From: a virus
Lineage: Duplodnaviria > Caudoviricetes
Virus record (IMG/VR): IMGVR_UViG_3300032011_004028
Span: 1 to 64,000 of that record
Direction: 5' to 3' (one strand)
DNA length: 64,000 nucleotides
Part shown: positions 3,491 to 20,107 of the stretch, one piece after another
Position numbering within the stretch: position 1 is the first letter of the stretch
How the letters are laid out: each line of letters starts with the position of its first letter
The notes under the pieces: model-generated
Told to the model about the DNA's origin: nothing
Databases searched by the model: none
Seen by the model: only the letters and a program-made list of their open reading frames with translations
Translations under genes and position numbers: made by a program

Positions 3491-4588
3491 TTAAATAGTA
3501 AGAGCATTGCGAAACTTTTTAAATAAATACCCAGTGACTTCCGGGCTTTTCTCTAAATATTTAACGAAATTGTCTTTACCTTGGTGCTTTGATTCCATTT
3601 CTATGTCGTGAGACTTTAACTCTTCGATTACAGAGTCCGCCACGATTATCCATGCCCCTTTACTTTCTAGCATCTCCCACTGGGTCATGAAGCCGTAAAC
3701 TTCATATTCTACCCATATACTCTTTCCGTTTTTTCTGCCATATTTGATAGGGTATCGCACGGTTTCTCCCGTTCTTTCATTAGCTGTTTTACGGAAAGTA
3801 ACCTTGCACATATGGCCTTCAGGTTTATCTGCTTTTGCCGGAATTAAATCTCCTCCGTATCTAGGTTGAAACTCTAAGATCCAATCTGAATAATGGAGCA
3901 GCGCGTTTCCTCCAGATGCGTTGGTAAGTTTAGGGTCAGTCTTTTCGTACTGATTTACGCTAACTTTACTTCTCACCTGAGATATCATAAAACAAATATG
4001 ACCTTTAGTGGAAAGTCCTAAAGCCATCTTTTTTAAAAAATTTGAACTTAATACGGACCCCCCTGCTACCTTGTCAGACTCCTCGAAGGAACGGTCTAAA
4101 TCCTTTTTAGGAACCATGGCATCCATGGAGTCAACAATAAAAAAATATTTACACTCAGTCGGGTTATTCATAATCAACTCCCTCATGAGCTGAAGAACGC
4201 TTTCAAAAATATTACTTTTATAAACGAACCATTTTTCGCTAGAAGTGTCTACTCCTGAGCGTTCGATCATTTCCGGAGACAGCCTTCCTTCAGATTTTAT
4301 ATAAACCGCCATGCCGTTATCTACTGATTGTTGGAAACTGCGGGCGAAAGATAAAGCGCATGAAGTTTTCCCACCTTCCGAAACACCAGAAGCCCTAATG
4401 ATTCCGGGGCGAATGCCACCCGACATCTCGTTATCTAGAAGAAGGCTACCGCTGGAAACAATATAGTGAGGCTCTTTCTCAAAATTAAAATGTTCATCTT
4501 TGTGGTCTTTAAGATAGCTTTGTATCTGGTCCACGGGATTGAACGTATCCGTAGTCTTCTTTTCAGTTGTTTTCTTTTTTGCTGCCAT
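3491..4588 (-). CDS. recA: RecA/UvsX-like recombinase
   Basis: Walker A GVSEGGKTS, Walker B FIVDSMDA, FMISQVR, ASGGNALLHYS. Confidence 0.85.
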   Translation of the reverse strand: MAAKKKTTEKKTTDTFNPVDQIQSYLKDHKDEHFNFEKEPHYIVSSGSLLLDNEMSGGIRPGIIRASGVSEGGKTSCALSFARSFQQSVDNGMAVYIKSEGRLSPEMIERSGVDTSSEKWFVYKSNIFESVLQLMRELIMNNPTECKYFFIVDSMDAMVPKKDLDRSFEESDKVAGGSVLSSNFLKKMALGLSTKGHICFMISQVRSKVSVNQYEKTDPKLTNASGGNALLHYSDWILEFQPRYGGDLIPAKADKPEGHMCKVTFRKTANERTGETVRYPIKYGRKNGKSIWVEYEVYGFMTQWEMLESKGAWIIVADSVIEELKSHDIEMESKHQGKDNFVKYLEKSPEVTGYLFKKFRNALTI

Positions 4589-5048
4589 TATTTAAAAAAT
4601 CCCTTAATGTCGTCGGTTTCCTTTTGAAGGTTTTATCCTCGCCGAATTTGACCGCTGCTATATTATGGGTAGTAGGGGGAGCTAAGTCAAGGGAAAATTT
4701 AGCGAACTCCACTTTAAGGTACTCTTTTCCTGCTGGGCAAAGATACCAAGCGAGCGTTTCCGTGGGAAAAGCCGGGGGAAGTGCCCTCCAAAAAATTTCA
4801 AGACTGTAGATTTCTATCATTTTTTTAGCTAAACCCAGTTCCCTGATTGCCGCTCCTTTATTGTTCCATATTGTCTTCGGGTGTTTTAAAAATTTATTTA
4901 TTATAAATTGATTTAAATTAACAGGATTCTGCGTCGAAGCACTCTTCCGGCACTTAGGGGAACAATACTTTTTTTGATGCGGCGAGGAAAACTCCTCCTC
5001 GCAATGAGCGCAGGAGTATTTTTTCTTATTCTTCTTTTTTATCGCCAC
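4563..5048 (-). CDS. Hypothetical protein with N-terminal Cys4 zinc-finger-like motif
   Basis: CAHC...CSPKC; GTG start; overlaps the recA start. Confidence 0.65.
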   Translation of the reverse strand: MAIKKKNKKKYSCAHCEEEFSSPHQKKYCSPKCRKSASTQNPVNLNQFIINKFLKHPKTIWNNKGAAIRELGLAKKMIEIYSLEIFWRALPPAFPTETLAWYLCPAGKEYLKVEFAKFSLDLAPPTTHNIAAVKFGEDKTFKRKPTTLRDFLNNGSKKENN

Positions 5049-5145
5049 GGATTAATTATGGCTTTAATGGGGTGCTGAAGCAACCTTTAAATTAGTATAG
5101 ATGGTGTGAAATACTACTAGAGTATAAACATTTTGAAATACTTAA

Positions 5146-6195
5146 CTAAAAGGCCTCGATATCGTTCTTTACCATTCTAGAGACTAAATCCTGAAAAGAA
5201 TACTTAGGTTTCCACCCGAGTTGCTCTCGTATGGGATTAGAGTCGCCGTGGAGAATCATGACTTCGGCGGGGCGGTAAAACTCTTCACTTATAGCTGCTA
5301 GAGTTTTAATCTCAGCTCCTCCCATGTCTATTTCTTGACACACAAAAGTTTCATCCATTCCTTCGCCGAACCATTTTCCATTTATGCCGACGCATTTAAA
5401 TGCTAAGTCAACAAATTCCCGAATAGAATGGGTTTCATTGCTAGATAAAATATATTCTTCAGGGACGTCTTGGTTGATCATCAGCCATATCCCTTCCATG
5501 AAATCTTCGGAGTCAGACCAGTCCCGCTTAGAGTCTACGTTTCCAAGTAGGAGAGGACTGAACTCCTTGCCTTGGTTGATTGCCGACTTAATTGCGGCAA
5601 CTCCCTTCGTAATCTTTCGGGTAACAAACTCTTCCCCTCTCCTGACGCCTTCATGGTTAAAAAGAATGCCGTGAACTGCAAAAATATCATAAGATTCACG
5701 GTAGACTTTAGTTAAAAAACGAGAAGCTACTTTAGAAACCCCGTAAGGACTCCTAGGTTTTGGTGGGTGAGCTTTGTCTTGGGGGCTATAATCTACGTCG
5801 CCCATTTCCTCTGAACTTCCGGCACTGTAGAACCTGCACTTAGGTTGAAATCTCCTAATAGATTCTAAACATCTTAAAGTTCCTAAGGCATTAGTATCCA
5901 TCACATGCTCAGGCATGTCCCAACTGCACCCTACAAACGAATTGGCAGCGAAGTTAATAAAGTAATCTGGCTGAATCTCTTGTACAAGTCTATCCAAAGA
6001 GCCTCCATCCGTAAGGTCTCCATAAACTAACTGAAACCTCTCGTTGTTCAGGAAAGATTCACAATTGGAGAGATTTATATTAGAAGATCTTCTGGTCATC
6101 CCGTAAACAAGATGGTCAGTCTCTTTCAAAAGGTAATCTACCATATTTGGGCCATCTTGGCCAGTTACTCCTGTAATAAGAACTTTTTTCTTCAT
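5146..6195 (-). CDS. gmd: GDP-mannose 4,6-dehydratase
   Basis: LITGVTGQDG, YSAGSSEEMG, PRSPYGVSK, ILFNHEGVRRGEEFVTRKIT, RDWSD. Confidence 0.95.
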   Translation of the reverse strand: MKKKVLITGVTGQDGPNMVDYLLKETDHLVYGMTRRSSNINLSNCESFLNNERFQLVYGDLTDGGSLDRLVQEIQPDYFINFAANSFVGCSWDMPEHVMDTNALGTLRCLESIRRFQPKCRFYSAGSSEEMGDVDYSPQDKAHPPKPRSPYGVSKVASRFLTKVYRESYDIFAVHGILFNHEGVRRGEEFVTRKITKGVAAIKSAINQGKEFSPLLLGNVDSKRDWSDSEDFMEGIWLMINQDVPEEYILSSNETHSIREFVDLAFKCVGINGKWFGEGMDETFVCQEIDMGGAEIKTLAAISEEFYRPAEVMILHGDSNPIREQLGWKPKYSFQDLVSRMVKNDIEAF

Positions 6196-6668
6196 TTTAG
6201 TATTGTAATTTTATTAGATTCACTGTTTTTATAATCTTCTATAACCTCTTTTACAAAAGGAGCTAGATTAGAAGGGACTTCATTTAGGGGGAAAAATTTT
6301 ACATTTAAACTCTCGTCACTCTTTTTAATGTTAAAGGAAGTGGGAGTAGCTAACAAATAAATATCTATAACCTGTTGAGCTTTCTTATCGCCCGAGTAAT
6401 GCCTTATTGTGCCGTATTGAGGGTCAGAATAAATCCCAAAAACTCCCTCTACTTCTATATCAACATTAGTTTCCTCTTTCGTTTCTCTTATTGCTGTCTG
6501 GCTTATGTTTTCTCCGGGCTCTAGTCGGCCTCCGGGGCATCCCCACAGAGAACAATCTTCCCTTTCTTCCAGTAAGATCTTGTCGTTATAAATAACTAAA
6601 GCTCCTATACCCACTTTTACCTCACTGTCTGGTGGAGCTTCTTTTAAAAAAAAAAGTTTATCACTCAT
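6192..6668 (-). CDS. NUDIX hydrolase
   Basis: Canonical Nudix box PGGRLEPGENISQTAIRETKEETNV. Confidence 0.9.
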   Translation of the reverse strand: MSDKLFFLKEAPPDSEVKVGIGALVIYNDKILLEEREDCSLWGCPGGRLEPGENISQTAIRETKEETNVDIEVEGVFGIYSDPQYGTIRHYSGDKKAQQVIDIYLLATPTSFNIKKSDESLNVKFFPLNEVPSNLAPFVKEVIEDYKNSESNKITILK

Positions 6669-7596
6669 GGTTCTTTTTGTACCAATTATAGGTTAGTTCA
6701 AGCCCTTCTTCTAGGGAATATTTATGGGTCCATCCTAACTTGTTCATCCGTGAGTTGTCCCCTACTCGCCGCAAAACTCCATCAGGCTTATCTGTTTGGA
6801 AAGTTATATCTCCTTGGTAATCAACGACTTGAGCAATTTTTTTAGCTAAATCTTCTATCGACCATTCCTCTCCGGTTCCGACATTTAGATGCGTCGCTCC
6901 GTTGCCGTAAACATCACTGGCTGTAATATTTTCTACGGCGAAAGCGCATGCGTCGGCCAAATCATCGACATACTGAAACTCTCTTTTAGCTTTTCCTGTC
7001 CCCCATACTTCTACTGATTCGGTGTTGTTAATCTTGGCTTCGTGAAACTTTCTCAGCAGAGCGGGTAAAACATGAGAGTTTTCCAAATGAAAATTGTCTC
7101 CGGGGCCATATTGATTTGTTGGCATAAGAGAAAAGAAATCACACCCATGCTGGCGGTAATAGCTTTGACACATTTTTATTCCTGCTATCTTAGAAACTGC
7201 ATAAGGCTCATTAGTTGGTTCCAGAGGAGAGGTTAGTAAATATTCTTCTTTTATCGGTTGTTCTGCAAATTTCGGATAAATGCAAATGCTGCCTAAGAAA
7301 ATTAATTTTTTAACCCCATGTTTGTAAGCGTTATGAATTATGTTATTTTGAATCTGGAGGTTTTGATAAATGAAATCAGCGGGATAAGCATTATTGGCGT
7401 GAATGCCCCCTACTTTTGCTGCTGCATCAATAACTATATCTGGTTTATGGGCTTCAAAAAATAAGTCAGTCATTTTCTGATCCATTAAGTCTAAACTGTT
7501 TCTGTCAGCAAAAAGAAGAGATACGTCTTCATTATCGAGCCTTCGCTTGACGGCCGATCCGACTAGTCCGTTATGTCCGGCTATGAATATTTTCAT
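6661..7596 (-). CDS. fcl: GDP-L-fucose synthase
   Basis: IAGHNGLVGSA, AAAKVGGIHAN, FLGSICIYPK, EPTNEPYAVSKIAG, SHVLPALLRK. Confidence 0.95.
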   Translation of the reverse strand: MKIFIAGHNGLVGSAVKRRLDNEDVSLLFADRNSLDLMDQKMTDLFFEAHKPDIVIDAAAKVGGIHANNAYPADFIYQNLQIQNNIIHNAYKHGVKKLIFLGSICIYPKFAEQPIKEEYLLTSPLEPTNEPYAVSKIAGIKMCQSYYRQHGCDFFSLMPTNQYGPGDNFHLENSHVLPALLRKFHEAKINNTESVEVWGTGKAKREFQYVDDLADACAFAVENITASDVYGNGATHLNVGTGEEWSIEDLAKKIAQVVDYQGDITFQTDKPDGVLRRVGDNSRMNKLGWTHKYSLEEGLELTYNWYKKNHE

Positions 7597-7600
7597 TTAT

Positions 7601-7678
7601 TTAATAAAGTTTTCTTAACTGTTTGTTCATCTTGGAAAGGGGGGGTTGTATTGAGCCGCTATCCAGTATCTGATTCAT
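7601..7678 (-). CDS. 25-aa mini-ORF starting inside the left 43-bp repeat (possible relic or coupling peptide)
   Basis: MNQILDSGSIQPPLSKMNKQLRKLY*; its stop is 4 nt upstream of the fcl ATG. Confidence 0.25.
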   Translation of the reverse strand: MNQILDSGSIQPPLSKMNKQLRKLY

Positions 7679-7712
7679 TTCTTAATATTTTGCAAAACTC
7701 CTCTTTATTTCT
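7670..7712. repeat. 43-bp direct repeat, copy A
   Basis: ctgattcatttcttaatattttgcaaaactcctctttatttct; 42/43 identical to 11544-11586. Confidence 0.9.
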
Positions 7713-7766
7713 AATCTTTTTGGAAGATATTTAATGAGCCCACCAAAACATCAGCAATTTCTTGAT

Positions 7767-8843
7767 TCATACAGCGGTACTGCTAACTAAATCTTCTAGT
7801 TTTTTTAGATCTACTTTCCACGGAGAATTCATCCCCCCTGCGATAGACAGAGAGTTTTTATCTATTATAACATCTTTTTGACGGCCCGCGAATTCGGTGT
7901 CGTCAAAATGATATAATTCAGTATGAGTCATAGCATGCTCCAGCCTTTTATTAACCTCAAAAAATTCAGGGCTATTAATGGAGATGACCTTAGTATCTGG
8001 GCCGCAGAAAAGAACGTTAGACATTCCCCCTCCACTAGCCCCAGCTACTACTTTAGCATGACGGAAAGCCCCTACTTTCTCTTTCATAGTTAAGTTTTCG
8101 CAGAATATTTCTTTAAATCCATATTTTTTAAAAATATCAACGACTTGATCTTCATTTACGCATTTTCTCTTTTGGGTATAATCTGTTCCGATGTTTGAGC
8201 TATGTGGTTGAGTCCACGTCCGGCGAGAAACATAAATTTTTTCCTCTACTCCTTCAGAGCCTTTTATTTGCCCGAGAACTTCATAAAGCCCTTTATGGGG
8301 AGGACCTAGAGAAAGTCGGTTATGAGTGAGGGAAGATCCTATGAGTATCTTCTTGTAACAAGTATAAGGGCCTAAAAAGATAAGATCGCTTTTGTGGATT
8401 CCTAATAGCTCTAAAGACTCATAAACAAACGGGTATAAATCCTTTTCTCCTTCAGGGGGGCTAACGAGAAGTTTTAGGGAAGGGTCCTTTTGTTTTTCTA
8501 GAAAATAAACGTACAGGTAAGGAAGTGTGTCATATATCCAGTGAAAATAATTGGCGCAATTATAAACAAAGTAAAAGACATTATTCTCTTCTAGCGTCTT
8601 TATTTGGGGCTGCTTAGGTTCAAACTCCATTGTTTCTTCATAAACGGTGCCCCTGCCTAAAGACATAAATCTTTCAATGGTCGGAAGTATTAACTCCTCC
8701 TCTTTTCTTAATAAGGGTTGGGGGTAATGGGTATTATACCCATCAATCGTGCATCCCAAAAAAGATCCAAGTTTTATATTTCTATCAGGACAAATAGTTT
8801 CAATGTCCCCAAGTTTTGATTCATCCCAGTATTGGATTTTCAT
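7767..8843 (-). CDS. Glycosyltransferase family 61-like (DUF563)
   Basis: NYFHWIYDTLP, IYVSRR, FRHAKVVAGASGGGMSNVLFC. Confidence 0.75.
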   Translation of the reverse strand: MKIQYWDESKLGDIETICPDRNIKLGSFLGCTIDGYNTHYPQPLLRKEEELILPTIERFMSLGRGTVYEETMEFEPKQPQIKTLEENNVFYFVYNCANYFHWIYDTLPYLYVYFLEKQKDPSLKLLVSPPEGEKDLYPFVYESLELLGIHKSDLIFLGPYTCYKKILIGSSLTHNRLSLGPPHKGLYEVLGQIKGSEGVEEKIYVSRRTWTQPHSSNIGTDYTQKRKCVNEDQVVDIFKKYGFKEIFCENLTMKEKVGAFRHAKVVAGASGGGMSNVLFCGPDTKVISINSPEFFEVNKRLEHAMTHTELYHFDDTEFAGRQKDVIIDKNSLSIAGGMNSPWKVDLKKLEDLVSSTAV

Positions 8844-9564
8844 TTTTGTTTTTGTTCCATTCTTCAGGCGTCCCCCAACAATAATAATTATCTACTTCAA
8901 ACATATTAACTTTTAATTCCGTGATAGTGTTAAATATATTATCAATATAATACTCTCCATTGCTACGAATCTTTTTTTTGTAAATTACTTTTGCAGCATT
9001 AATAAAATCTGACGCTCGGGAAAAATAAAAAGTTCCAACAATAGCGTGGTTATTATAAGGATCATCAAAAACACTCTTTTTAACATGAGTCTTTAATAAA
9101 GTGTCGCCATCTACTTCCAGCCAACTATAGGAGGATGGATTAGATGCAAAGGATTCATTACGTATGGTTGACCAAACTATAATATCTGCATCCCGTTTTA
9201 CTTTCTCAAATTTAGGCCTAGACCATTCTAGCCCATAATCACAACAGCTAATTATAATAGGGTCGTCATTCTTTATAGATGACTTTTCTATACCTATTTG
9301 AGCGGAGCAAGCTTGCCCTTCAGTGGTTTCATCTACGGTTACAAACTCGCAGTTTGGGTAGTGAATCCTTAATAGCTCATCTATTTGATATTTTTTTAAA
9401 TGTTCGCTCCTGCAAACAAACACATATTTTTCAAAAGTCGGCAAACAGTTTACTGCTTTAATTATCATTGGGTCACCCCCGACTTCTAGCAAAGGTTTGG
9501 GAACCTCTTCCCCTGCTTGGCTAAACCTTTTTCCGTCACCGGCCAGTGTTATAAGTCCCGTCAT
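8821..9564 (-). CDS. Sugar-phosphate nucleotidyltransferase
   Basis: LAGDGKRFSQAGEEVPKPLLEV, TTEGQACS, ISCCD, WGTPEE. Confidence 0.85.
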   Translation of the reverse strand: MTGLITLAGDGKRFSQAGEEVPKPLLEVGGDPMIIKAVNCLPTFEKYVFVCRSEHLKKYQIDELLRIHYPNCEFVTVDETTEGQACSAQIGIEKSSIKNDDPIIISCCDYGLEWSRPKFEKVKRDADIIVWSTIRNESFASNPSSYSWLEVDGDTLLKTHVKKSVFDDPYNNHAIVGTFYFSRASDFINAAKVIYKKKIRSNGEYYIDNIFNTITELKVNMFEVDNYYCWGTPEEWNKNKNENPILG

Positions 9565-10055
9565 CCTTTCATATCAGCCACATAATCTGAGCATACGCCC
9601 CAAATTTGTTTTTTGGGAAAATGATTAGATACGTCTTCTCGGGTCAATAAAGGGATAATACTTTTACAATTAATTTCCTCTAGGCAATGAGCCCAAATAA
9701 TTCCATCTATCACAATACCATGTGAATTGCGGCAGTTATGAACGAGGGAATACTTATCGTTTTCATGAAAAAAAACTGCCAACTCTTTATCGCGGTTAAG
9801 ATGGTGAAAAGTAAGAGCACTAAAAGCGTTGAAGTTCTTAGCATGAACTACTAGTTTACTCCTTCTTTCCTCTAGCCATTCATAGGGAATCTCTGCACTG
9901 GGAGCGTCGTGGCCGAGAAAAAATTTTTTATCATTTCTCCAAATATCCACTTCCACAGAAAAACCAGCAGATAGAGCCTCGTCTATATACGCAGGGGTAT
10001 TCTCCAGCTCTGGATTTTTTCCGTTTAAATTTCCACGATGCGAGTAAAGAATCAT
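9561..10055 (-). CDS. Glycerophosphodiester phosphodiesterase-like short protein
   Basis: SHRGNL...ENTPAYIDEALSAGFSVEVDIW...FFLGHD. Confidence 0.65.
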   Translation of the reverse strand: MILYSHRGNLNGKNPELENTPAYIDEALSAGFSVEVDIWRNDKKFFLGHDAPSAEIPYEWLEERRSKLVVHAKNFNAFSALTFHHLNRDKELAVFFHENDKYSLVHNCRNSHGIVIDGIIWAHCLEEINCKSIIPLLTREDVSNHFPKKQIWGVCSDYVADMKG

Positions 10056-10059
10056 AATT

Positions 10060-10878
10060 TTATAAGCGGTGGTAATCCGTCCAATAATTATAGCACTTTA
10101 AAAGGTCTTTTTCGGATTTTATTTGCCCTTTGGTCAAGATACTGGCCCAAGCCTCGAAGTTTTCAACTTCTTCAGGGGTACCCATCACTGTCGCGAAAGG
10201 CGTATCATAATAACCAACTTTCAACCCGTCTTGGATAAGTAAATTATAAACGAGAGTAACATAATATTCCCCATTGTAATTTATATTTTTTTCCATTGTT
10301 AGATCAAAATATTTCTTAATATAAGAGCCTTTCTTAAAGTAATAAGTCCCAGTAGAAGCGTGTTCGTTCATTGGGTTATCTGTATAGCATTCTTTTTCTT
10401 TTATTTCCGTCACTATCCCATCCTGATCTTTCATGAATGCCATTTTAGTATTGTTTAAGGTATGGGGGTGGAATCCGGTATGAGAAAGTACACATCCATC
10501 TAAATTATTATGGCGAACATGAGCCTCAAACTCTTCTCGGTTCCATATGTAGGGGTTGTCACAGTAAGATACGATTACCTCTTCATCGTCTTCTATCAGG
10601 TCGTAAACTTTCTGCACTGTGTAAACAGGGCCAAGTTTATGCATAGGCATTGAAACAATTGTAGATCGAGGAGCTAATCGCTTTAAAACATTTTCTATAT
10701 TTGTTTCTTCTAGATGCTTTTGATTGCAAATAAATACAAGTTCATCCTGTTCATTAAACATATCGAGGATATATTCAATAATCATCTTACCATTAACTTC
10801 TATTAATGGTTTTGGATCGGTGTATCCGGCAGTCATGAATCGGGAACCAATCCCTGCCATAGGTATGATAATTTTCAT
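10060..10878 (-). CDS. Sugar-phosphate nucleotidyltransferase (paralog of 8821-9564)
   Basis: IIPMAGIGSRFMTAGYTDPKPLIEVNG, VSYCD, ASTGTYYF, MGTPEE. Confidence 0.85.
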   Translation of the reverse strand: MKIIIPMAGIGSRFMTAGYTDPKPLIEVNGKMIIEYILDMFNEQDELVFICNQKHLEETNIENVLKRLAPRSTIVSMPMHKLGPVYTVQKVYDLIEDDEEVIVSYCDNPYIWNREEFEAHVRHNNLDGCVLSHTGFHPHTLNNTKMAFMKDQDGIVTEIKEKECYTDNPMNEHASTGTYYFKKGSYIKKYFDLTMEKNINYNGEYYVTLVYNLLIQDGLKVGYYDTPFATVMGTPEEVENFEAWASILTKGQIKSEKDLLKCYNYWTDYHRL

Positions 10879-10880
10879 CT

Positions 10881-11552
10881 TTATTCAATACTTATCCACT
10901 CGTCTTTGTATTCAAAGGTTCTGTCTCTCTTAGACCATTGAGGGGTTCCTAGAACAATATCTGCTCCAGATTGGTAAAGCTGTTTTTTGAAGTTAAAGGG
11001 GGCTAATGATATTTTTTTACGAGATAAAGTATTGTCTATAACCTGATGAGGGTTTATTACGTTAAAGTTTACCCCTTCAGTAGAAAACATTTTCATTGCT
11101 ACTTGAGGAGAGCATAAGGCAATGTTATCAAAAGTCCCCCACTCAAGCGACGGGGCGTAGTAAGTGTCTTGTTTTATTTCTTCTGGTATTTCAATTTCGA
11201 GCAGCTCGCAATCGATTCTATGTCTTAATACAACCTTATAATCTAAAAAATTATCTACGTGAGAGATAAGCAGTTCAATACTCTTAAACATTCGATAATT
11301 ATTCCCGCTCTGACCCCCTTGCGCTGCAGTTATGGGATCGATTAGATAAAAACTAACATCTAGGGATGATCGGTTGAGCTGTTTTTCTAGCTCTTCTGCT
11401 TCAGGACTGCGATATGTTAGAATGTATACATCACAATTAACCGCGCCAACAGTTTCGATAGTGTTTTTAATATTCTTAAAAACTCTGTCGGTGTCGGGTC
11501 GCACAACTCCAGTTATCAGAACGCAGATGTTTTTCATTTTAGCCTGATTCAT
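10881..11552 (-). CDS. Hypothetical, possibly glycosyltransferase/WavE-like
   Basis: 223-aa ORF in the island; LITGVVR, VLRHRID. Confidence 0.5.
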   Translation of the reverse strand: MNQAKMKNICVLITGVVRPDTDRVFKNIKNTIETVGAVNCDVYILTYRSPEAEELEKQLNRSSLDVSFYLIDPITAAQGGQSGNNYRMFKSIELLISHVDNFLDYKVVLRHRIDCELLEIEIPEEIKQDTYYAPSLEWGTFDNIALCSPQVAMKMFSTEGVNFNVINPHQVIDNTLSRKKISLAPFNFKKQLYQSGADIVLGTPQWSKRDRTFEYKDEWISIE

Positions 11553-11931
11553 TTCTTAATATTTTGTAAAACTCCTCTTTATTTCTGATGTATTCGTCTT
11601 CATTGAAGTTTTCGGAGCAAAAACATAATAAAATAGTATCTTCCTCTTCATAAGTCTGTTCCGACCAAACTAATTTATCTAGAAAAAAACATTCGTTAGG
11701 CAGTAAGGTCTCTTTATTAAAAACTCCTTCCACGGCCTCATTGTTTAAAGTTATTTTTCCCTTAAGACATATAAGAACTTGACTTTCTTCGCGGTGGGCG
11801 TGGTATCCCCGGGTTTCTCCTTTGCCTACGCCGCTTACCACAAAAAACCTTTTAGGGCTAAAGGGAAAGTTTTGAAATTCTTGAACAACGAGTTGTCCTT
11901 TTGGTGATTTATTAACTTTGAGGGGTTTCAT
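11539..11931 (-). CDS. FdtA/QdtA-like cupin (dTDP-4-keto-6-deoxyglucose 3,4-ketoisomerase)
   Basis: FPFSPKRFFVV, ETRGYHAH, QVLICLKG; start reassigned to the ATGA overlap at 11931. Confidence 0.8.
   Translation of the reverse strand: MKPLKVNKSPKGQLVVQEFQNFPFSPKRFFVVSGVGKGETRGYHAHREESQVLICLKGKITLNNEAVEGVFNKETLLPNECFFLDKLVWSEQTYEEEDTILLCFCSENFNEDEYIRNKEEFYKILRNESG
11544..11586. repeat. 43-bp direct repeat, copy B
   Basis: ctgattcatttcttaatattttgtaaaactcctctttatttct; encodes the cupin C-terminus and the next gene's start. Confidence 0.9.
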
Positions 11932-12824
11932 TTTTTTAAAGATGCTGGAGGGGGAGTTCCGTAAGATTTTTTTTGCTCTTCTATTAATTTGTTTAAGTGT
12001 TTTTTTGCGGGACCTTGTAGGTGTAACCCGTTGAAAAGGATGAAGTCGCCCAGAACTTGATGGTAGCAATAAGGTTTGCCGTCATAAAATTTTACATCTT
12101 TGTGCTCGCCAGTGTGGTTGTAGACACCATCGTCTACATTAAAGTTGTGATCGTAAGCCGTTCCTCCGATTACGTGCATCATTTCCCCAATACGACATGG
12201 TCCTCCGCCATCATCCGCATTATAGTGAAAGGCTTCGAGCAGTGTCATGTCACACACCCCTCCATTAAGGCCAAAATTTAAACGGGTGAGGTAAACGTTT
12301 TTCATTTTAGCGAATTCGTAAGAATTTTTGTTTTGATAATGATTAAATACGAAATCACAAAACTTTTTCAAAGATTTTTGGGTTATAAAAGAAGAGGCCC
12401 CACACGAACGATGGACTAACGTCATTTCAAATTGGCTGTATTTGCGTTTGTACTCTTCCGTCACGTCTGTATAAATCATAACGTCCGTATCCGAATGAAA
12501 AACAATAGGGAGGTCATTCTTTTCCATAAAATCCAAAAGTATAAACCATCGAAGAAAACAGATTAGTTCTATCTGAGCGTCGTTTGTGCTTAAGTTTTCA
12601 TAATTCTTTTGAAAGGCGTTTACTGTTTCGGGCCAATAGTCTTTCAGGTGAGCATAAGAAAAGTTTTTATCTTCGATTTGAAGCTCTTCGTTAGAAATGA
12701 GACGTACCTCGTTTCCCGTTCGGAGGGCCTGCTCGCTGGTCGCCTTGAATATACCGTCACGAAAAGGTTCCACATGATTAGAGGGGCGATTGAAATGTAT
12801 AAAAACAACAGGGATATTTTTCAT
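11928..12824 (-). CDS. Putative GT-A fold glycosyltransferase
   Basis: ICFLRWFIL, FHSDTDV (DxD), GVCDMTLL. Confidence 0.55.
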   Translation of the reverse strand: MKNIPVVFIHFNRPSNHVEPFRDGIFKATSEQALRTGNEVRLISNEELQIEDKNFSYAHLKDYWPETVNAFQKNYENLSTNDAQIELICFLRWFILLDFMEKNDLPIVFHSDTDVMIYTDVTEEYKRKYSQFEMTLVHRSCGASSFITQKSLKKFCDFVFNHYQNKNSYEFAKMKNVYLTRLNFGLNGGVCDMTLLEAFHYNADDGGGPCRIGEMMHVIGGTAYDHNFNVDDGVYNHTGEHKDVKFYDGKPYCYHQVLGDFILFNGLHLQGPAKKHLNKLIEEQKKSYGTPPPASLKK

Positions 12825-13567
12825 TTAAGTTTCATGTAACAAATCCAAGTATAACTGCCGATTTCAGAATCGGTTTCAAATAAGGGATAATCACCGGTTT
12901 CACTACAGATAGAAGGAGGGGTCTCGTAGTCAGCCCAAGGATTTCCCCATCGAGTTTTTTCTTTACTAAAAATAGGGGGGAATTCTACGTATTCCTCTAC
13001 CGTCCTTTCAAAGAGCATTTCTTCTTCTGGCTGAACGGTGTGAAAACTTTTTTGACCATTTGCGTCTAAAACATAAGGTCCTCCAGCTCTTATTTTCTTG
13101 GGGGAGAGGCAGTCCCCTTGGTTAGACGGGTAGTTGTCCTCACATACGATATGTTTGAAGGGGGAGTTTTTCAGGAAGACGAGTCTCTCTGCGAAGTTTT
13201 GGTGGTCGTCCAGAAAAACTAGAGCATCTTCCGGTCTAATCTTAGGGTTATCATTAAATACGGTATCCCAATTTATGTTCTTAATATCGTTTTGAACGTA
13301 ATTCACCTCTGGGTCTTTATAGACTAAATTGCCAAAGTCTACATCAAAGGAAAGAATATTAACTTGAGGCAACGCTTGTTTCATTAGCCATGTACCCTGT
13401 CCTTTCCATACGCCGCTCTCTACTATTAATAAGGGTTTAAGTTTTCTTAAAAGGTTAAAAGTGGCAAAAAGGTGGGGCGACTTCATTCCTCCTTCATTGT
13501 CGTCTATAGGACGTCTCTCGTAAAGATCGTGAAACTCTTTTAGATATTTAGTATAATCTATCTCCAT
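12821..13567 (-). CDS. Putative class I SAM-dependent methyltransferase
   Basis: IVESGVWKGQGT motif I-like, LVFLDDHQ. Confidence 0.55.
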   Translation of the reverse strand: MEIDYTKYLKEFHDLYERRPIDDNEGGMKSPHLFATFNLLRKLKPLLIVESGVWKGQGTWLMKQALPQVNILSFDVDFGNLVYKDPEVNYVQNDIKNINWDTVFNDNPKIRPEDALVFLDDHQNFAERLVFLKNSPFKHIVCEDNYPSNQGDCLSPKKIRAGGPYVLDANGQKSFHTVQPEEEMLFERTVEEYVEFPPIFSKEKTRWGNPWADYETPPSICSETGDYPLFETDSEIGSYTWICYMKLK

Positions 13568-13569
13568 GA

Positions 13570-14709
13570 TTAAGATCTAAAGCTATTTATTGCATTTATT
13601 ATATGCTCTACTTGAGCGTTTGACAAAAAAGGATGCATAGGCAAGCTTAAAAGCTTGTCAGCAAACTCATCGGTATTGGTGGGTGGCCCCGAAAAATACT
13701 CGGCACGATCTTTCAGGCCTTCAAAAGGGGCGCTTTTGTAGGGGGGAATGGGGTAATGAATCAGGGTTGGAACTTTACGTTCGTTTAAGTGATTTTGTAT
13801 AGCTTCCCTTTCGTCAACTAGAAGGGGGTATATGTGGTAAGAATTACGCGTAACATGGGGAGCGTTTTTTGGAGTAACTACGTAGGATGAGTTGATTCCT
13901 TCGGCGTATTTGTTGGCAATCTCCTTTCTTTTCAAATTCCATCTATCAAGGTGAGGAAGTTTATGTTTTAAAAAAACGGCCTGAATGGGATCTAAACGAT
14001 TATTCCATCCTATATCATTATTGTGGTATTTTTTAGGTGACCCATAATTTCTTAACTCACAAATCTTTTTGTAATAATCCGGGTTATCTGTTGTTATGAT
14101 TCCCGCGTCTCCCATCGCCCCTAGGTTCTTACCGGGATACAGGGAATAAACGCATAAATCAGCGTAAGACCCGACCATTTCGTCATCACTTAATGCTCCA
14201 TGCGCTTGGGAAGCGTCTTCTACGATTTTACAATTATATTTATCAGCTAAACATTTGAGTTTTTGTATGTGAACGGGGTGCCCGTAAAGATGAACCGCCA
14301 GTATAATACAATTATTATACTTTTTCCGCCACCGCTTCAAATGCTTTTCTACCTTATCTAAGTCGAGCTGAAAGAAATTATCACAATCGATTAAAGATAT
14401 ATCAAAGTTACCCTGCGTTTGGTGAGCCACTCCTAATACATCTGCAATGTAGCCGTTAGCTGGCATAATAACGTCAGTAGAATCCTTGTAAAATTCAAAC
14501 GATTGGATTGCTAATTTAAGACCATCTGTACCGTTGGATACACCGGCCGCATATTTACGCCCAGTATAGCAAGCGAACGCCTCCTCGAACTCCTCAAGAG
14601 CCTCCCCTCCTATATACATTCCAGAGTCTAATAATTTTTCAAGCGAAGGAGCGCAGTTGTCCTTGATTTCTTTCCACTGACTGGCTAAATCATTAAATAG
14701 TATCTTCAT
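13570..14709 (-). CDS. DegT/DnrJ/EryC1/StrS PLP aminotransferase (FdtB/QdtB-like)
   Basis: GVSNGTDGL, VHLYGH, VEDASQAHGA, SLYPGKNLGAMGDAG, NNRLDPIQA. Confidence 0.92.
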   Translation of the reverse strand: MKILFNDLASQWKEIKDNCAPSLEKLLDSGMYIGGEALEEFEEAFACYTGRKYAAGVSNGTDGLKLAIQSFEFYKDSTDVIMPANGYIADVLGVAHQTQGNFDISLIDCDNFFQLDLDKVEKHLKRWRKKYNNCIILAVHLYGHPVHIQKLKCLADKYNCKIVEDASQAHGALSDDEMVGSYADLCVYSLYPGKNLGAMGDAGIITTDNPDYYKKICELRNYGSPKKYHNNDIGWNNRLDPIQAVFLKHKLPHLDRWNLKRKEIANKYAEGINSSYVVTPKNAPHVTRNSYHIYPLLVDEREAIQNHLNERKVPTLIHYPIPPYKSAPFEGLKDRAEYFSGPPTNTDEFADKLLSLPMHPFLSNAQVEHIINAINSFRS

Positions 14710-14713
14710 TATA

Positions 14714-15532
14714 TTACCAATAGCATCCGTTTTCTACGAGAGATTGATTTTCTGGAGTTTCTTCTTTTGACGGGCGAATCCAGCTGTCATTAATAAACTT
14801 AGATATATCCTCGTGATCATCCCATCTGGCGCCCTTTATTCCGAATAAAATTTGCGTGCCTCCTCCCATGTGAATCCCCGAAATCCCCTTTGTTTTTAAT
14901 TTATGAATAAGGGGCAGTGCAAAAGCCCCCGCTCCCACAATCACAATATCGGGATCAAAATCGACACATTTATTATATAGGTCGTCTAACGCCTCAAACC
15001 AATCACTATACTCACTCTTTCTCATGCTGTGAAAAGGAGATTTCACCACGGAAAGGTTGAAGGCGGGAAGAGTATTTTTACTTCCCCACACCTTATCTCT
15101 TCGCTCGTACTGAGACAAGACGCTTTTATCAAATGGAGTCACAACAGTAACAGACTTGCCTTCTAGGGCCGTACTCCATCCTTCTTCAAAGTAGTAAGGT
15201 TCTAAAGACCTCATGGGACAAGTAGAAAAATTTGAATTGCCCAGCGAAACAAATTCTTCATCTCTGTCTATCCAGCTTGCGAGAATATCCAAGCTTGAAG
15301 TAGATTCAATGTAGAGATCCAAAAAAGAATTCAATACATCGGTTTGGTCGGGGAAAACTCCAGCATTCACGGTAAGTAGCTGTCGAATATGAGGGGGGAA
15401 AGGGACTTTCGCTAATTTAACCTGTACTCCGAGAAATTCTGACATTCCCAATTTCCCTGCCGAAAAAACTTCACCGGAAAGAATTTTATTTTTTACAACA
15501 AGGTTTCCTTTTAGTTGTCCTGCGTCACTCAT
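14714..15532 (-). CDS. Hypothetical glycan-island protein (possibly GT-D fold)
   Basis: 272-aa ORF; IVIVGAGAFALPL...GIHMGG; island context. Confidence 0.45.
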   Translation of the reverse strand: MSDAGQLKGNLVVKNKILSGEVFSAGKLGMSEFLGVQVKLAKVPFPPHIRQLLTVNAGVFPDQTDVLNSFLDLYIESTSSLDILASWIDRDEEFVSLGNSNFSTCPMRSLEPYYFEEGWSTALEGKSVTVVTPFDKSVLSQYERRDKVWGSKNTLPAFNLSVVKSPFHSMRKSEYSDWFEALDDLYNKCVDFDPDIVIVGAGAFALPLIHKLKTKGISGIHMGGGTQILFGIKGARWDDHEDISKFINDSWIRPSKEETPENQSLVENGCYW

Positions 15533-16412
15533 TATTTATTTGCTGCCGCTCTTTGTTGATTCTTTCTCTTAGAGGCTTGAGGTCCTCCTCTATAGCTTCT
15601 GGATGCTTCCCTTCGAAGGGTTTTGTAAAGCATTCCCCTCTTACTTCAGGCTTAAATTCGTGAACCCCGTGGTATACCTGTTCTATTATACTCCTTTCTT
15701 CCGGTAAATGAGCGTTTATCCAAGGTAAATAAATTTTTTCAAAATAATTGTCAATACAGTTTTCTTTACTGACTTTAGCTTTATAGTATTGTATTTTATT
15801 GTAAACCTGAAGAGGAAAAGTATAAGAGTAATGGTACATTTGCACCCCTGTCAAAGCTAAGAAAAATTCGCTATCTATATGCTTTTCTTCTATAGGGGTC
15901 GAGTGACCCATTGTCGGTGGGCGGTGGGTCAACCATTTACTGCCCGGGGTTACTTTAAAAATCCTCAAAAAGTTATCCTTATTAAGTTCAAACCCAGTTA
16001 AATAATCATCAAACCCTCCAAAAAAAGAACAGCTTCTTACTCCAACACTTGTAGGCTGTACCTCTTTAAGAAAGTTAATAGTGGATTCAATGTCATCGGT
16101 TTTGTAAATCTCGTCACTGTCAACCATCCATAAAAAGTCAGTGTCAGGGGCCAAGTTCTGCATATAAGCGTTGCACTGCTCATCTTTCCCTGAGTATTGA
16201 CCATGGGTCACTATAATCTTATTATCGGGATCGGGAAAGTTCTTAAGAATAGAGTTAGTTTTATCCGTGGAGGTTGTTCTTCCTTGATCTTGCCAATATT
16301 TTACCGGTCCTTCGGCAATTAAAATTTGAGAGGCAAAAGGATAGATTTGTTTTAAACATTGTTGAAGGACGAAATCGCCCTCAAAAACAATCATAGCAAA
16401 GGCAATCTTCAT
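15525..16412 (-). CDS. GT2-like glycosyltransferase
   Basis: FAMIVFEG...ILIAEG, WMVDSDE, MYHYSY. Confidence 0.65.
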   Translation of the reverse strand: MKIAFAMIVFEGDFVLQQCLKQIYPFASQILIAEGPVKYWQDQGRTTSTDKTNSILKNFPDPDNKIIVTHGQYSGKDEQCNAYMQNLAPDTDFLWMVDSDEIYKTDDIESTINFLKEVQPTSVGVRSCSFFGGFDDYLTGFELNKDNFLRIFKVTPGSKWLTHRPPTMGHSTPIEEKHIDSEFFLALTGVQMYHYSYTFPLQVYNKIQYYKAKVSKENCIDNYFEKIYLPWINAHLPEERSIIEQVYHGVHEFKPEVRGECFTKPFEGKHPEAIEEDLKPLRERINKERQQINNE

Positions 16413-17278
16413 TTTTTATAATAAGGTTTAATTTTGGAGAGGTAGTCCATATAAAAATGCCTAACGACAGGCATTTTAAATATTTCAAAATTAAAAGTAT
16501 GATCGGCGTACCATCCTGATGTAGGGCTTATATCACCTGTTTTTTCATCGATTGACAAACGGGAGAAATGGTTAAAAACTAAAGGCTGTTCTTTATCGCC
16601 CCATATAATAGTACCTTTAGAGGGGTAAGTGTCATAACAATAAAGCCTAAAGTTCCAAGGGGCTCCGTGGGCAAAAGTTTTGTCTAGAATAGCTACCGAG
16701 TCGCCATATATTTTAGGAAATTCTTCAAGATATTTTTGGTCACCAATAGTGGCTAAGTCGGGCCTCTTTTCTAATAACATTGTCTCATTCCACCATCTAG
16801 CGCATGACTTACCGTCTTCATCATTGTTAAAATAAACTATGCCTACGTTAAACTCTCCATCAGGAGAAAGAGAAGTATTGTGACGGTGACGTATTATTCC
16901 TATACTAGAATCTTTTATTTCATCATATACTATTTGGATGTCTTGATAAAAAAGAATATCCGAATCAATATAAAGAATATGCGATGTTTCTTCTTTTTCT
17001 AAAAGATGACGACAGAAAGTTGAAGCGAGGGACCAGCAGTACTCGTTATACGGTTTCTTTTTTTTATAGTTGACAGAGAGTGGGTTAAAATCTTCTACTT
17101 CAGAAAGTTTTATCCTTTGAACTGAAGCTTCATTTTCTAACGCATTAAAAGATTCGTCATCAAGGCATAAGAAAAATAGGGTGAATTCAGAAGAGGTGGT
17201 AGATCTTAGGGAGTCTAAAAGAGCTCTGCCGAAAGGTAAATATTTCTTATCAACTATAGTGCAAAAAAATTTATTCAT
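16409..17278 (-). CDS. GT-A (GT8-like) glycosyltransferase
   Basis: LYIDSDILF, FNVGIVYF, GDQKYLE, APWN, FNHFS. Confidence 0.75.
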   Translation of the reverse strand: MNKFFCTIVDKKYLPFGRALLDSLRSTTSSEFTLFFLCLDDESFNALENEASVQRIKLSEVEDFNPLSVNYKKKKPYNEYCWSLASTFCRHLLEKEETSHILYIDSDILFYQDIQIVYDEIKDSSIGIIRHRHNTSLSPDGEFNVGIVYFNNDEDGKSCARWWNETMLLEKRPDLATIGDQKYLEEFPKIYGDSVAILDKTFAHGAPWNFRLYCYDTYPSKGTIIWGDKEQPLVFNHFSRLSIDEKTGDISPTSGWYADHTFNFEIFKMPVVRHFYMDYLSKIKPYYKK

Positions 17279-18182
17279 TTGTAAAATTAAAAAGCTGCCC
17301 GGCTTTTGATGGCTCCCAGCTTAAAGTGTCTCTTATTTTTTTTGAAGAAATCTTGTAGCGTAAATCTTGACCAAGACGATTCTCAATAAACTGTATATGG
17401 TTTTCGTAGTCAGATATATCAAACCATCCACAAACTTCTTTAACTACTTCTATGTTATTAAGATGGTGGTAGGCTGATATATTCCAAATATTATTAATCT
17501 GTTCAGAGAAGCAAACTTTGTAGATAGCCGCCGCATTATCCTCTACGTATAACCAGTCCCTATAGTATAGGCCATCTCCATGCATGGGTATCTTGGATTT
17601 TTCTGTAATAGATTTTATTATCCGGGGTATGAGTTTTTCAGGGTATTGTCGCGGCCCATAATTATTACTGCTTCTTGTTATTTGATAATCTATACCATAC
17701 GTTCTTCCCCAAGCTAGAACTAACATATCGGCCGCTGCTTTACTGGCCGCGTAAGGGTTGCTTGGTGTTAATACGTCATCTTCAGTTCTGCCTAATACTT
17801 CTGAATCGTAATCTCCATAAACTTCATCCGTACTTACATGCACAAAAAGAGGCCTGTCATAAGGCTTCCCTCGGAGAAGATTTAGTAAGTTCAATGTTCC
17901 CTTAACGTTTGTTTCTACGAAAACATTTGGCGACGCTATAGCGTTATCCACGTGGCTCTCGGCTGCAAAATTAACTATGATATCGCATAGAGGTAGATGA
18001 TCTATGTCTTTTATATCTTTTTCAATAAAAGTATAATTAGGGTGGTCATCCCAAGGAAGAGATCTACTAGCCGCGTAAGTAAGTTTATCAACATCAATAA
18101 CGCTGTGGCCGTTTTTGAGGCAGAGTTCGACAAAATAACTACCGATAAAACCTCTGCCACCTGTAACTAGAAAAGTTTTCAT
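17271..18182 (-). CDS. rmlB: dTDP-glucose 4,6-dehydratase
   Basis: VTGGRGFIGS, DKLTYA, NFAAESHVD, HVSTDEVYGD, PSNPYAASKA, NNYGPRQYPEKLIP. Confidence 0.95.
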   Translation of the reverse strand: MKTFLVTGGRGFIGSYFVELCLKNGHSVIDVDKLTYAASRSLPWDDHPNYTFIEKDIKDIDHLPLCDIIVNFAAESHVDNAIASPNVFVETNVKGTLNLLNLLRGKPYDRPLFVHVSTDEVYGDYDSEVLGRTEDDVLTPSNPYAASKAAADMLVLAWGRTYGIDYQITRSSNNYGPRQYPEKLIPRIIKSITEKSKIPMHGDGLYYRDWLYVEDNAAAIYKVCFSEQINNIWNISAYHHLNNIEVVKEVCGWFDISDYENHIQFIENRLGQDLRYKISSKKIRDTLSWEPSKAGQLFNFTNE

Positions 18183-18197
18183 TTGTAATAAATCTTT

Positions 18198-18926
18198 CTA
18201 CATGTTCCTTTCATGAAACTTGCGCCTAACTTCTTCTTCTTCCTTAGCTTTCCATTCGTTGGTTTCTTTATTGGTAGACATACCAGCCGGGTTCATGTAA
18301 TAAAGACCTAGTGGAGCGTTAATTTTTCCAAATTTAGCTCCGTTCTCTAAAAAGCGCAACCACATATCTAGGTCTCCTGCTGATTTATACTTGTGGCTAA
18401 ACATGCCACTCTTTTCGTGAAGACTTTTCTTCCAAAGGGGATTATTGTGGGGGGCTCCTCGGTTTAGAATTGCATCCAAAGAGGCATCAGGTGGAGAAGG
18501 GTATACTCCTATAGCTGTGTTATTTTCAAAGGTTTCGTTGGGCGACTGCGTAACTAAAATGTCTCCATATATTACATCAGCTTTAGAGTTGTCCTCCATT
18601 ACTTTTAAATGTATCTCTAAGGACTTAACGCTCTTCCGGTCATCAACATTAGCATTAGTGAGAAACTGTCCTCGAGACATTTCTATCGCAGTGTTCCAGC
18701 AAGCGTAAATACCGGGGTCTTTATCTAATCTAGAATAAACAATATTCGGATATTTTTTTTGATATTCTAGAATAATATCCTTTTCATTATCTGGGGAATT
18801 AGCATCTACGATTATTAACTCACACTTTTCTTCAAAGATGGTTTGGTTGACTATGTCTTCCAAGAAGCCTTTAATATAAGCTCCCCCTTTGTAAAGGGAA
18901 GTTATTATAGAAATTTTAGGATTCAT
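18198..18926 (-). CDS. GT2 glycosyltransferase
   Basis: ISIITSLY, LIIVDANSPD, GIYACWN, NANVDD, GDLDMWLR. Confidence 0.85.
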   Translation of the reverse strand: MNPKISIITSLYKGGAYIKGFLEDIVNQTIFEEKCELIIVDANSPDNEKDIILEYQKKYPNIVYSRLDKDPGIYACWNTAIEMSRGQFLTNANVDDRKSVKSLEIHLKVMEDNSKADVIYGDILVTQSPNETFENNTAIGVYPSPPDASLDAILNRGAPHNNPLWKKSLHEKSGMFSHKYKSAGDLDMWLRFLENGAKFGKINAPLGLYYMNPAGMSTNKETNEWKAKEEEEVRRKFHERNM

Positions 18927-19770
18927 TTCTTCTTATTTCACTAATGAAATCAGCAAAAGTTTCTCTTTTGAGTCTCATTTTGTTTATCAAATCTTTTCCG
19001 CTAAGAGTGTACCAATCTTCATAAGAAGCCCCTATTAATTCATTTGTCACCACTTCCACGTTCATCATTTTAGCTTCAAGTACGAGCCTGCAGCAAGTTT
19101 CGGGCGTTGTAGGATGGAATACTAGCTTTGAGTAGCTGGACAACTTATTTAAAAAAGATTTATAATCGGGATCTTTAATAATGTCAAAGTTCCACTGTTT
19201 ATCTTTACAGAATTGAGCTGAAGCTTGGGTGCCTTTTTGGGGGTATGGAGATTCTATTACGACGGACCGATCATTTTTCTCCTTATCGCAATGGCTCTCT
19301 AGTAGGTCTAGACTCTCTTCAGACCAGAGATTGCCGGAAAAATTGACAGTTTTAAGTGGGCGCTCAAGATTTCTATCATAAATATCTTTTTGAAATTGAG
19401 TCTGGCAGATAATCCTATGAGCGTTCCAGTGAAAATCTACATTAATCAATTCATTTGGGGAAACGTGAAAATTAGGATAAAGGGCTGGGTTAGTATGCTG
19501 GACGAACTTGTAATCGTGACAGTAAAGAATATATTTGCAGTTTTTCTGTATCAGGTCTCTTAACTCGGGATTAACCCCGAAAAAGTTGGATATTATAAAA
19601 AAAGAATCGAGGTTCTCTTGGATGAACCCCTCGTACAGATAGCGACTTTTTATTTTGTAAACATCAAAGCGTTTCGATAAGAGCTTGAATATCTCCTCGT
19701 CGTTTAAAGCTGCGCCACCTACGAAATCATCGATAAAAAAGTCACTAACTAATATAATCTTGTCATTCAA
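18916..19770 (-). CDS. Putative GT-B glycosyltransferase
   Basis: FVGGAALND, YCHDY, PETCCRLVLEAKMM (ExxxxxxxE). Confidence 0.6.
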   Translation of the reverse strand: MNDKIILVSDFFIDDFVGGAALNDEEIFKLLSKRFDVYKIKSRYLYEGFIQENLDSFFIISNFFGVNPELRDLIQKNCKYILYCHDYKFVQHTNPALYPNFHVSPNELINVDFHWNAHRIICQTQFQKDIYDRNLERPLKTVNFSGNLWSEESLDLLESHCDKEKNDRSVVIESPYPQKGTQASAQFCKDKQWNFDIIKDPDYKSFLNKLSSYSKLVFHPTTPETCCRLVLEAKMMNVEVVTNELIGASYEDWYTLSGKDLINKMRLKRETFADFISEIRRNES

Positions 19771-20107
19771 ATTTACTTGGGTCTTTAGGGTGTTTTTTTC
19801 CCTTTCGTCTTTCAGCGTAGTCTTTGAAGTATTGCTGTTGGACGGGGTCTCTCCCTTCTTTATCTTTCCTTTTCTCAGAAAGCTCTTTGGAGCGATCCCA
19901 CATTTCTCCTACGTTCTGGACTTTCGCTTTTTCCCTGAAATCTTTAGCTGAATAAGGGTCTATTTTGGTGTCTATGGAAGCCTGAGGGATAGTGTAAACA
20001 CGATTATAAGTAATATCATCAACTTGGTAAACGTGCTCTTCATGAATACTCTGCCAAACAGTTATCTGTTCGCCACTGTCAGGATGTTCATAGATGTATT
20101 CAGGCAT
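19763..20107 (-). CDS. Hypothetical (FmdB-like N-terminus without Cys)
   Basis: MPEYIYEHPDSGEQITVWQSI pattern. Confidence 0.5.
   Translation of the reverse strand: MPEYIYEHPDSGEQITVWQSIHEEHVYQVDDITYNRVYTIPQASIDTKIDPYSAKDFREKAKVQNVGEMWDRSKELSEKRKDKEGRDPVQQQYFKDYAERRKGKKHPKDPSKFE

Follow-up and report, generated by a model that had tools for sequence, protein, structure and literature searches.

A 43-base-pair direct repeat around a glycan gene module of an uncultured marine phage: probable scar of an old recombination joint

Our subject is a direct repeat of 43 base pairs (R43) that brackets a five-gene glycan module in the genome of an uncultured marine phage. The window, which is the whole stretch of 64,000 nucleotides that was analysed, comprises positions 1 to 64,000 of IMG/VR virus record IMGVR_UViG_3300032011_004028. 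All coordinates are window positions. Positions within the repeat are given as index (idx) numbers, where idx 44 is the base just after R43. The module occupies a slot between genes for a FdtA/WxcM-like cupin and an fcl-like GDP-fucose synthase (Table 1), and all genes of the repeat-bounded region are on the minus strand. We consider it likely that the repeat is a fossil recombination joint, resulting from an out-of-register crossover in a hypervariable slot of the glycan island, and that it is a passive scar today. An earlier note on this DNA had proposed either the scar of a cassette insertion or a switchable module. The first of these is now well supported, by a truncated cupin end, a piece of an SDR pseudogene, relatives with an empty site, and relatives with other occupants.

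The two copies of R43, A (7670-7712) and B (11544-11586), are identical at 42 of 43 positions and start 3874 nt apart. The one mismatch is at idx 20, where copy A has G and copy B has A, leaving perfect runs of 19 and 23 nt. A pattern search of the 64-kb window, allowing up to three mismatches, found these two copies and no others. The same search detected a second copy in none of 100 shuffled sequences. Alignment and pattern search thus confirm the repeat as the earlier note described it. An exact-pattern scan for R43 in viral_contigs gave 0 matches. The junction between copy A and the adjacent spacer also gave 0 matches in an exact-pattern scan of metagenome_contigs; this collection evidently lacks even the window's own sequence, and the scan is hence uninformative.

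Copy B, when translated, provides the end of the cupin, ...RNKEEFYKILRNESG followed by a stop codon. The C-terminal tail of this protein (IRNK[DE]EFY...) is conserved among cupin homologues. Furthermore, copy B matches, at 43 of 43 positions, the single copy present in L085, a relative in which the site is empty. Copy B is thus the cupin's own, true 3' end. Copy A reads RNKEEFCKILRNESDTG, then a stop codon, with no gene body ahead. Copy A and the spacer, taken together, run collinear with the end of the cupin gene and the intergenic sequence in L085. Copy A is a truncated, non-coding duplicate of the cupin 3' end. The translations uphold the initial description of copy B as the cupin C-terminus and copy A as an orphan relic. 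The ATG inside copy B had also been taken as the start of the next gene, hyp223. This is probably not so, and ATG 11537, rather than ATG 11552 in copy B, is the probable start. A homologue of hyp223 in L076 begins MNDKFC..., which fits ATG 11537, and a gene call of 218 aa (P0143) agrees. In addition, L085 has the ATG of copy B, and there no gene follows for it to start.

The seam, from the stop codon of the GT61-family glycosyltransferase gene (7767) to fcl (7596), is a 170-nt patchwork. Its first part is a remnant of an SDR epimerase gene (7765-7713). This reads QEIADV, is then frameshifted by a 1-nt deletion, and continues as FGGLIKYLPKRLE; the counterpart in L038 is QEIADVFGGVVEYLPKRLE. The remnant and L038 are 81% identical over 58 nt by blastn. 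Matches by blastx to the SDRs of L038 and L028, in two adjacent frames, have E-values of 2e-5 and 6e-5 respectively. In most relatives, this SDR epimerase gene is intact and immediately precedes fcl, as in L002, L014, L019-L021, L028, L038 and L041. The SDR fragment ends ...AGATTAGAA and copy A starts AGAAATAAAG..., with a 4-nt microhomology, AGAA, at the joint. The novel joint consists of fragments of genes that are intact elsewhere: a duplicated cupin 3' end and a piece of SDR. Beyond copy A, the spacer (7597-7669) matches the native spacer between cupin and fcl in L085, and also that of L053, a relative from another project.

An open reading frame (ORF) of 25 codons runs from ATG 7678, within copy A, to 7601, leaving 4 nt ahead of the fcl ATG (7596). 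While these coordinates, and the 4-nt gap, stand as first reported, the ORF is not conserved as a protein. Spacer indels of +2 and -1 in L053, and a poly-C tract of 5 in L085, shift its frame and end. Since neither frame nor length is conserved in these relatives, we rejected the ORF as a real coupling ORF and do not regard it as a gene. The length of the poly-C tract (7639-7645) varies by lineage, being C7 in the window, C6 in L053, and C5 in L085.

The cupin falls in a 90% cluster of 32 members. One of these, P0132 (132 aa), ends ...EEFYKILRNESGTG (...NESGTG), which is a near-exact copy A reading. P0132 is encoded on a 32-kb JGI contig (3300072015), in the order methyltransferase-like, cupin, 60 nt, fcl, NUDIX, gmd, RecA, tubulin, DnaB. 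This contig shares the RecA/tubulin/DnaB backbone of the window. P0132 is also encoded on L085, which likewise has 60 nt between cupin and fcl, and the DNA of which aligns with the window, unbroken, through the cupin 3' end, R43, the spacer and the fcl start. Identity is 98-100% over the last 140 nt of cupin, 97% over 7712-7653, 90% over 7652-7593, and ~85% in fcl. Because this alignment is unbroken, copy A and the spacer are the 3' end, and native downstream sequence, of a cupin gene that was once directly before fcl.

Other relatives have different arrangements. In a second empty form (L091/L092), cupin overlaps fcl by ATGA and there is no spacer. The commonest relatives (cupin P0129, 164 index blocks; L086-L090 and L054) have one unrelated 204-aa gene between cupin and fcl. 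In these, homology with the window ends at idx ~39 of R43 and resumes at the fcl ATG. Another different gene follows cupin in L055. The slot thus exists in at least four natural states: cupin/fcl overlap, cupin-spacer-fcl, cupin with the 204-aa gene and fcl, and the five-gene module with its scar. A clean deletion between the repeat copies would recreate one of these, cupin-spacer-fcl. The earlier note had suggested a search for relatives with cupin directly before fcl, or with other cassettes at the same site, and both kinds are found. The cupin tail is also a recurrent module boundary, with at least four different downstream junctions within, or just after, its last ~20 nt (idx ~22, ~36-39 and 44; L054/L086, L055, L091 and L085).

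L053 has the cupin, the same five genes, the same scar, and fcl. Module and scar are 97.4% identical between this relative and the window, while the flanking genes are 16-20% diverged. More precisely, divergence is 15.9% in cupin, 2.6% over ~11507-7579, and 19.8% in fcl. Maximum-likelihood breakpoints are at 11507 (support interval 11564-11494) and 7579 (7681-7564), and the intervals touch both repeat copies. From the sharp jumps in divergence at the edges of the block, we infer that the module moved as a unit, with breakpoints at or near the repeats. Copy A of L053 has the idx-20 change seen in the window, and differs from the window's copy A only at idx 41. Copy B has five L053-specific differences, all at idx 26 or below. 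Because of these changes, the two copies in L053 are alike at 36 of 43 positions and the longest perfect run is 14 nt. The L053 cupin tail is of the L091 type through idx 36 and of the window type beyond. Hence, the crossover behind that cupin lies within ~10 nt inside R43 (idx 27-36). Entry by a single crossover (Campbell type) would give this result, and so, equally, would ordinary selection favouring joints at gene ends. Copy A has acquired two changes since the scar formed, at idx 20 and idx 44, and L053 has both. The scar therefore predates the split of the two module copies.

Further relatives bear on the SDR remnant. In L066, and on the P0013 contig, GT61 is followed by an SDR gene, although this SDR is gmd-like (34%) and not of the L038 type that matches the relic. 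In L064/L065, which have the closest relative of GT61 (89%), the final ~12 nt of an SDR tail are fused to the GT61 gene, and fcl comes next. These arrangements point to an older GT61-SDR-fcl order that may have been trimmed, independently, more than once.

The scar could have formed as follows. A genome with the order cupin-hyp223-NT-x-NT-GT61-SDR(-fcl), where NT is nucleotidyltransferase, would have crossed, out of register, with a near-identical cupin-spacer-fcl genome. The joint, at the 4-nt AGAA, would have linked SDR codon ~300 to a point 43 nt before the cupin stop codon. By an alternative route, a circle carrying the 43 bp would have integrated at the cupin end by a single crossover, giving the same structure. 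The product would be one genome in which the module is flanked by two cupin ends. Afterwards, the useless 5' part of the truncated SDR would have been deleted. Later still, the whole block would have reached a further lineage through crossovers that fell within the two copies or beside them. The present repeat could still permit rare deletion, of the RecA type, that would regenerate the natural empty arrangement.

Some observations weigh against this explanation. The postulated donor arrangement, with cupin, the module, an intact SDR and fcl, was not found among the relatives. Between the SDR landmark AGATTAGAA and the SDR-like landmark that follows, there are 52 nt in the window and 51 nt in L038. 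This odd agreement is easier to reconcile with a templated patch of equal length than with a simple crossover, though similarity between spacer and SDR tail is not significant. The empty site may be ancestral or may be the product of an early excision, as a single base (idx 44) is diagnostic. Finally, the coincidence of breakpoints with repeats is no proof that the repeats were used, since selection for intact genes leaves the same pattern.

The second proposal of the earlier note was a switchable module giving alternative glycan types in the population. If so, the two copies would recombine at an appreciable rate in present-day infections, via the RecA-like protein of the phage, and a 3.87-kb circle would re-enter co-infecting relatives at the cupin end, with mixed glycan types as the result. 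Such switching would be aided by the 42/43 identity and the two long perfect runs, and the RecA-like gene is 3 kb from the repeat-bounded module. The excision product would also equal a natural arrangement. In L053, the left crossover within R43, and the sole copy-A difference at idx 41, are as a single Campbell-type crossover would give. There is a precedent in the mini-circles formed at promoter early stem-loop (PeSL) elements of T4-type phages (PMC2839356). However, all 16 distinct contigs of the window strain are filled, and no cupin-spacer deletion junction is present among them; this is weak evidence, given that assemblies do not reveal minority variants. The relatives with an empty site come from different samples and represent different lineages, with fcl genes only ~85% identical. 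At idx 44, L085 has G, and not the A expected from excision between the present alleles. The copies in L053 are much less alike, yet the module persists. Moreover, efficient exchange of the RecA type usually requires perfect runs of at least 23 nt, if not longer. We therefore view active switching as unlikely and find the proposal of a switchable module unsupported.

A related idea is that the 43-bp cupin tail serves as portable 'docking' homology. The module would leave as a 3.87-kb circle and enter the cupin end of co-infecting relatives, by a single crossover over short homology, driven by the RecA-like protein of the phage, and the crossover mapped within R43 of L053 would be one such event. 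We are similarly doubtful of this. Were it true, phages of a natural population would exchange surface-glycan modules and switch between them.

In each of two contigs that otherwise match the window exactly, a glycosyltransferase gene has a premature stop codon. In L063 (JGI 3300032032), a G-to-T change turns GAA to TAA at GT61 codon 293 (7967). In L043 (ENA ERZ27251043), a G-to-T change turns GAG to TAG at codon 111 (18596) of the GT2 gene at 18198-18926. Knock-out point mutations, and not loss of the cassette, may thus be the source of glycan variation in the clonal strain, unless the changes are sequencing errors. L043 also has six clustered substitutions in 84 nt of gmd (5465-5548), with one substitution elsewhere in 20 kb. 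The cluster looks like a short gene-conversion patch from a related phage.

A templated patch in cis is less probable again. Here, repair of a decaying SDR gene would have changed template, at AGAA, to the cupin end that lies 3.9 kb upstream in the same genome. After copying ~43 nt, in place of an SDR segment of that length, it would have returned to its first template. The empty relatives would have arisen later, by deletion between the copies. Consistent with this, copy A matches the window-type cupin and not L053's own cupin, and the spacing of SDR landmarks is kept. In addition, the small ORF shares the SDR frame, and its stop codon is 4 nt short of fcl, as in SDRs of the L019 type. Conversely, when the 73-nt spacer was compared with nine SDR tails, local alignment scores were no better than for shuffles. 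Without significant similarity of this kind, we rejected the idea that the spacer is what remains of an SDR 3' tail and that copy A is a patch of unchanged length, and it is kept only as a minor rival. Two precise template switches would also be needed. Furthermore, R43 and spacer are contiguous with an intact cupin in L085, which explains copy A and spacer directly.

The earlier note had allowed for an assembly artefact. Exact-protein look-up placed the cupin on 12 contigs and fcl on 10 (ENA, Logan and JGI), and the retrieved contigs are all 99.9-100% identical to the window. Both repeat copies are spanned by six distinct, independent assemblies (L043, L044/L057, L045, L046, L058 and L059), at 100% or 99.97% identity, and these come from ENA/MEGAHIT, Logan and JGI, and from different samples. 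An assembly chimera, or coincidental match in AT-rich DNA, has only the window's origin in a metagenome assembly in its favour and is refuted by the shuffles, by assemblies of different samples (MEGAHIT, Logan and JGI), in which the structure is the same, and by the same scar, with independent point differences, in L053; its probability is close to nil.

We conclude that this is a well-documented, multi-state example of known phage mosaicism at a module boundary, involving no new mechanism or new kind of element. In the Hendrix/Hatfull model, mosaicism results from illegitimate, or short-homology, recombination at gene boundaries, and relaxed recombination by phage recombinases is also described (PMC2327257). 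The likeness lies in module-sized indels with joints at gene ends, the AGAA microhomology, leftover pseudogene fragments, and sharp jumps in divergence. Unlike the usual cases, the same slot has been caught in at least four natural states, and a composite scar, of SDR piece and duplicated cupin end, records the order of events. Compared with other examples, the setting here is an uncultured marine long-tailed phage and the cargo is nucleotide-sugar and GT61 genes.

The nearest parallel in spirit is with T4-type phages, in which PeSLs mediate modular shuffling and mini-circle formation in hyperplastic regions (Arbiol et al. 2010, PMC2839356; PMC4122927). PeSLs are multi-copy motifs, comprising promoter plus terminator, between genes (PMC2839356; PMC4122927). 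In both systems, short direct repeats bracket accessory cassettes in a variable region, and recombination would free a circle and leave a clean deletion. In contrast to PeSLs, R43 occurs just twice in the 64-kb window and is itself coding sequence, from the 3' end of a gene. It is also free of promoter and hairpin, and sites resembling a promoter or terminator were absent from both copies, as well as from the scar and seam. A regulatory cassette of the PeSL type was thus rejected, since R43 is without a sigma-70 promoter or stem-loop terminator and has two copies only. The marine cyanophage S-PM2 undergoes spontaneous deletion of an 'ORFanage' (PMC4503421). A multi-gene accessory block is lost cleanly, in culture, and the deletion can take over the population (PMC4503421). 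In our case, by comparison, the end states alone are seen, in different natural lineages.

Two further kinds of element were considered and rejected. For a site-specific cassette (integron attC, or integrase and att site), there is no integrase or recombinase domain in the scanned island ORFs, and no inverted repeat at the module ends. For a transposon, or insertion sequence, with target-site duplication (2-14 bp), the duplication of 43 bp is too long, there are no terminal inverted repeats, and the scanned ORFs have no transposase domain. Note that, while no integrase, transposase or recombinase domains were found in scanned island ORFs, a few short ORFs were unscanned and several scanned ORFs match no family.

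Bacterial O-antigen and capsule cassettes are swapped between conserved flanking genes. Similarly, the glycan genes studied here are exchanged as blocks between conserved flanks; in bacteria, the variants give different surface sugars. The differences are that the genome is viral, that the flanks are themselves sugar-pathway genes (cupin and fcl), and that the joint is within the last 10-40 nt of cupin. The slot offers an unusually complete natural record of a virus rebuilding its sugar-making gene set, being empty (in two forms), or holding one gene or five. Pieces of both parental arrangements survive in the seam. For uncultured marine phages, the joints of module exchange can thereby be placed at gene ends and narrowed to lengths between a few bases and a few tens. 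The exact junction sequences are supplied, and can be used in existing read sets to measure how often modules are gained and lost.

The features of the slot are listed in Table 1. The enclosed genes are as the earlier note had them, with GT61, two nucleotidyltransferases and a hypothetical, except that the label 'GDPD-like' is weakly supported for the 164-aa protein. Its likeness to GDPD consists of an HRG..EN..E.D..HD motif, a match to a PDB GDPD at E=1.4, and Atlas leads. NT1, the 164-aa protein, NT2 and GT61 occur together as a conserved module that is widespread among marine viral contigs (40-78% protein identity). Marine metagenomes contain 810 GT61 homologues at 53% identity or more.

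Table 1. Features of the slot between cupin and fcl, in window positions
Feature	Position	Strand	Evidence and remarks
FdtA/WxcM-like cupin, 130 aa; left flank of slot	11539-11931	-	Pfam PF05523, E 8e-28; ATGA overlap with upstream gene
Repeat copy B	11544-11586	-	native 3' end of the FdtA-like cupin (...RNKEEFYKILRNES; stop 11539-11541)
hyp223; first module gene	10881-11537 (from the likely true ATG); 10881-11552 from the ATG in copy B	-	no family match
NT1; sugar-1-phosphate nucleotidyltransferase-like (GlmU N-domain-like)	10060-10878	-	Pfam NTP_transf_3, E 4e-9; NCBIfam GlmU/RmlA-type N-terminal matches
164-aa protein, weakly GDPD-like; belongs to a large phage-only family	9561-10055	-	
NT2; second nucleotidyltransferase-like protein (GlmU N-domain-like)	8821-9564	-	
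GT61-family glycosyltransferase; last module gene	7767-8843	-	Pfam PF04577, E 2.5e-18
SDR epimerase remnant	7713-7765	-	between GT61 stop and copy A; 53 nt
Repeat copy A	7670-7712	-	non-coding relic of the cupin 3' end
Spacer from copy A to fcl	7597-7669	-	73 nt; rest of the relic reading frame (stop 7659-7661), C7 tract 7639-7645, most of the 25-codon ORF
fcl-like GDP-fucose synthase (SDR); right flank of slot	6661-7596	-	Pfam Epimerase and GDP_Man_Dehyd; source names of cluster members 'GDP-L-fucose synthase'

The window has genes for DnaB, a tubulin-like protein, a RecA-like protein, ribonucleotide reductase, and tail proteins, and the element is a large uncultured marine long-tailed phage. 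Glycan genes extend over ~16 kb (5146-21188), upstream of RecA. The helicase-to-gmd backbone is common to 42 IMG/VR relatives, at 70-90% protein identity, and gene content upstream of gmd/fcl is mosaic. These IMG/VR relatives, found through RecA (L001-L042), all lack the cupin, and a cupin protein search of IMG/VR gave no confirmed relative. A megablast comparison of the island with cultured phages gave no match.

Some minor observations concern neighbouring genes. The window gene at 11928-12824 (298 aa) is absent in L053, where 11985-12819 is deleted. What is left is an in-frame mini-ORF of 20 codons (L053:9400-9461), consisting of the start codon and last 17 codons. The mini-ORF keeps ATGA overlaps with both neighbours, and looks like a 'clean' deletion scar that preserves translational coupling. 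A tubulin/FtsZ-family protein (1499-2785; Pfam PF00091, E 2e-12) is encoded between the DnaB helicase and RecA-like genes, and is kept in all relatives. In many relatives (L067-L075), NT-x-x-NT-GT61 modules are preceded by a gene for a fused PRK-like kinase and class II aldolase-like protein, of 457-473 aa (L067 ~4288-5709). These modules also have an extra gene, of ~115 aa, after NT1; both this gene and the kinase-aldolase fusion are missing from the window version.

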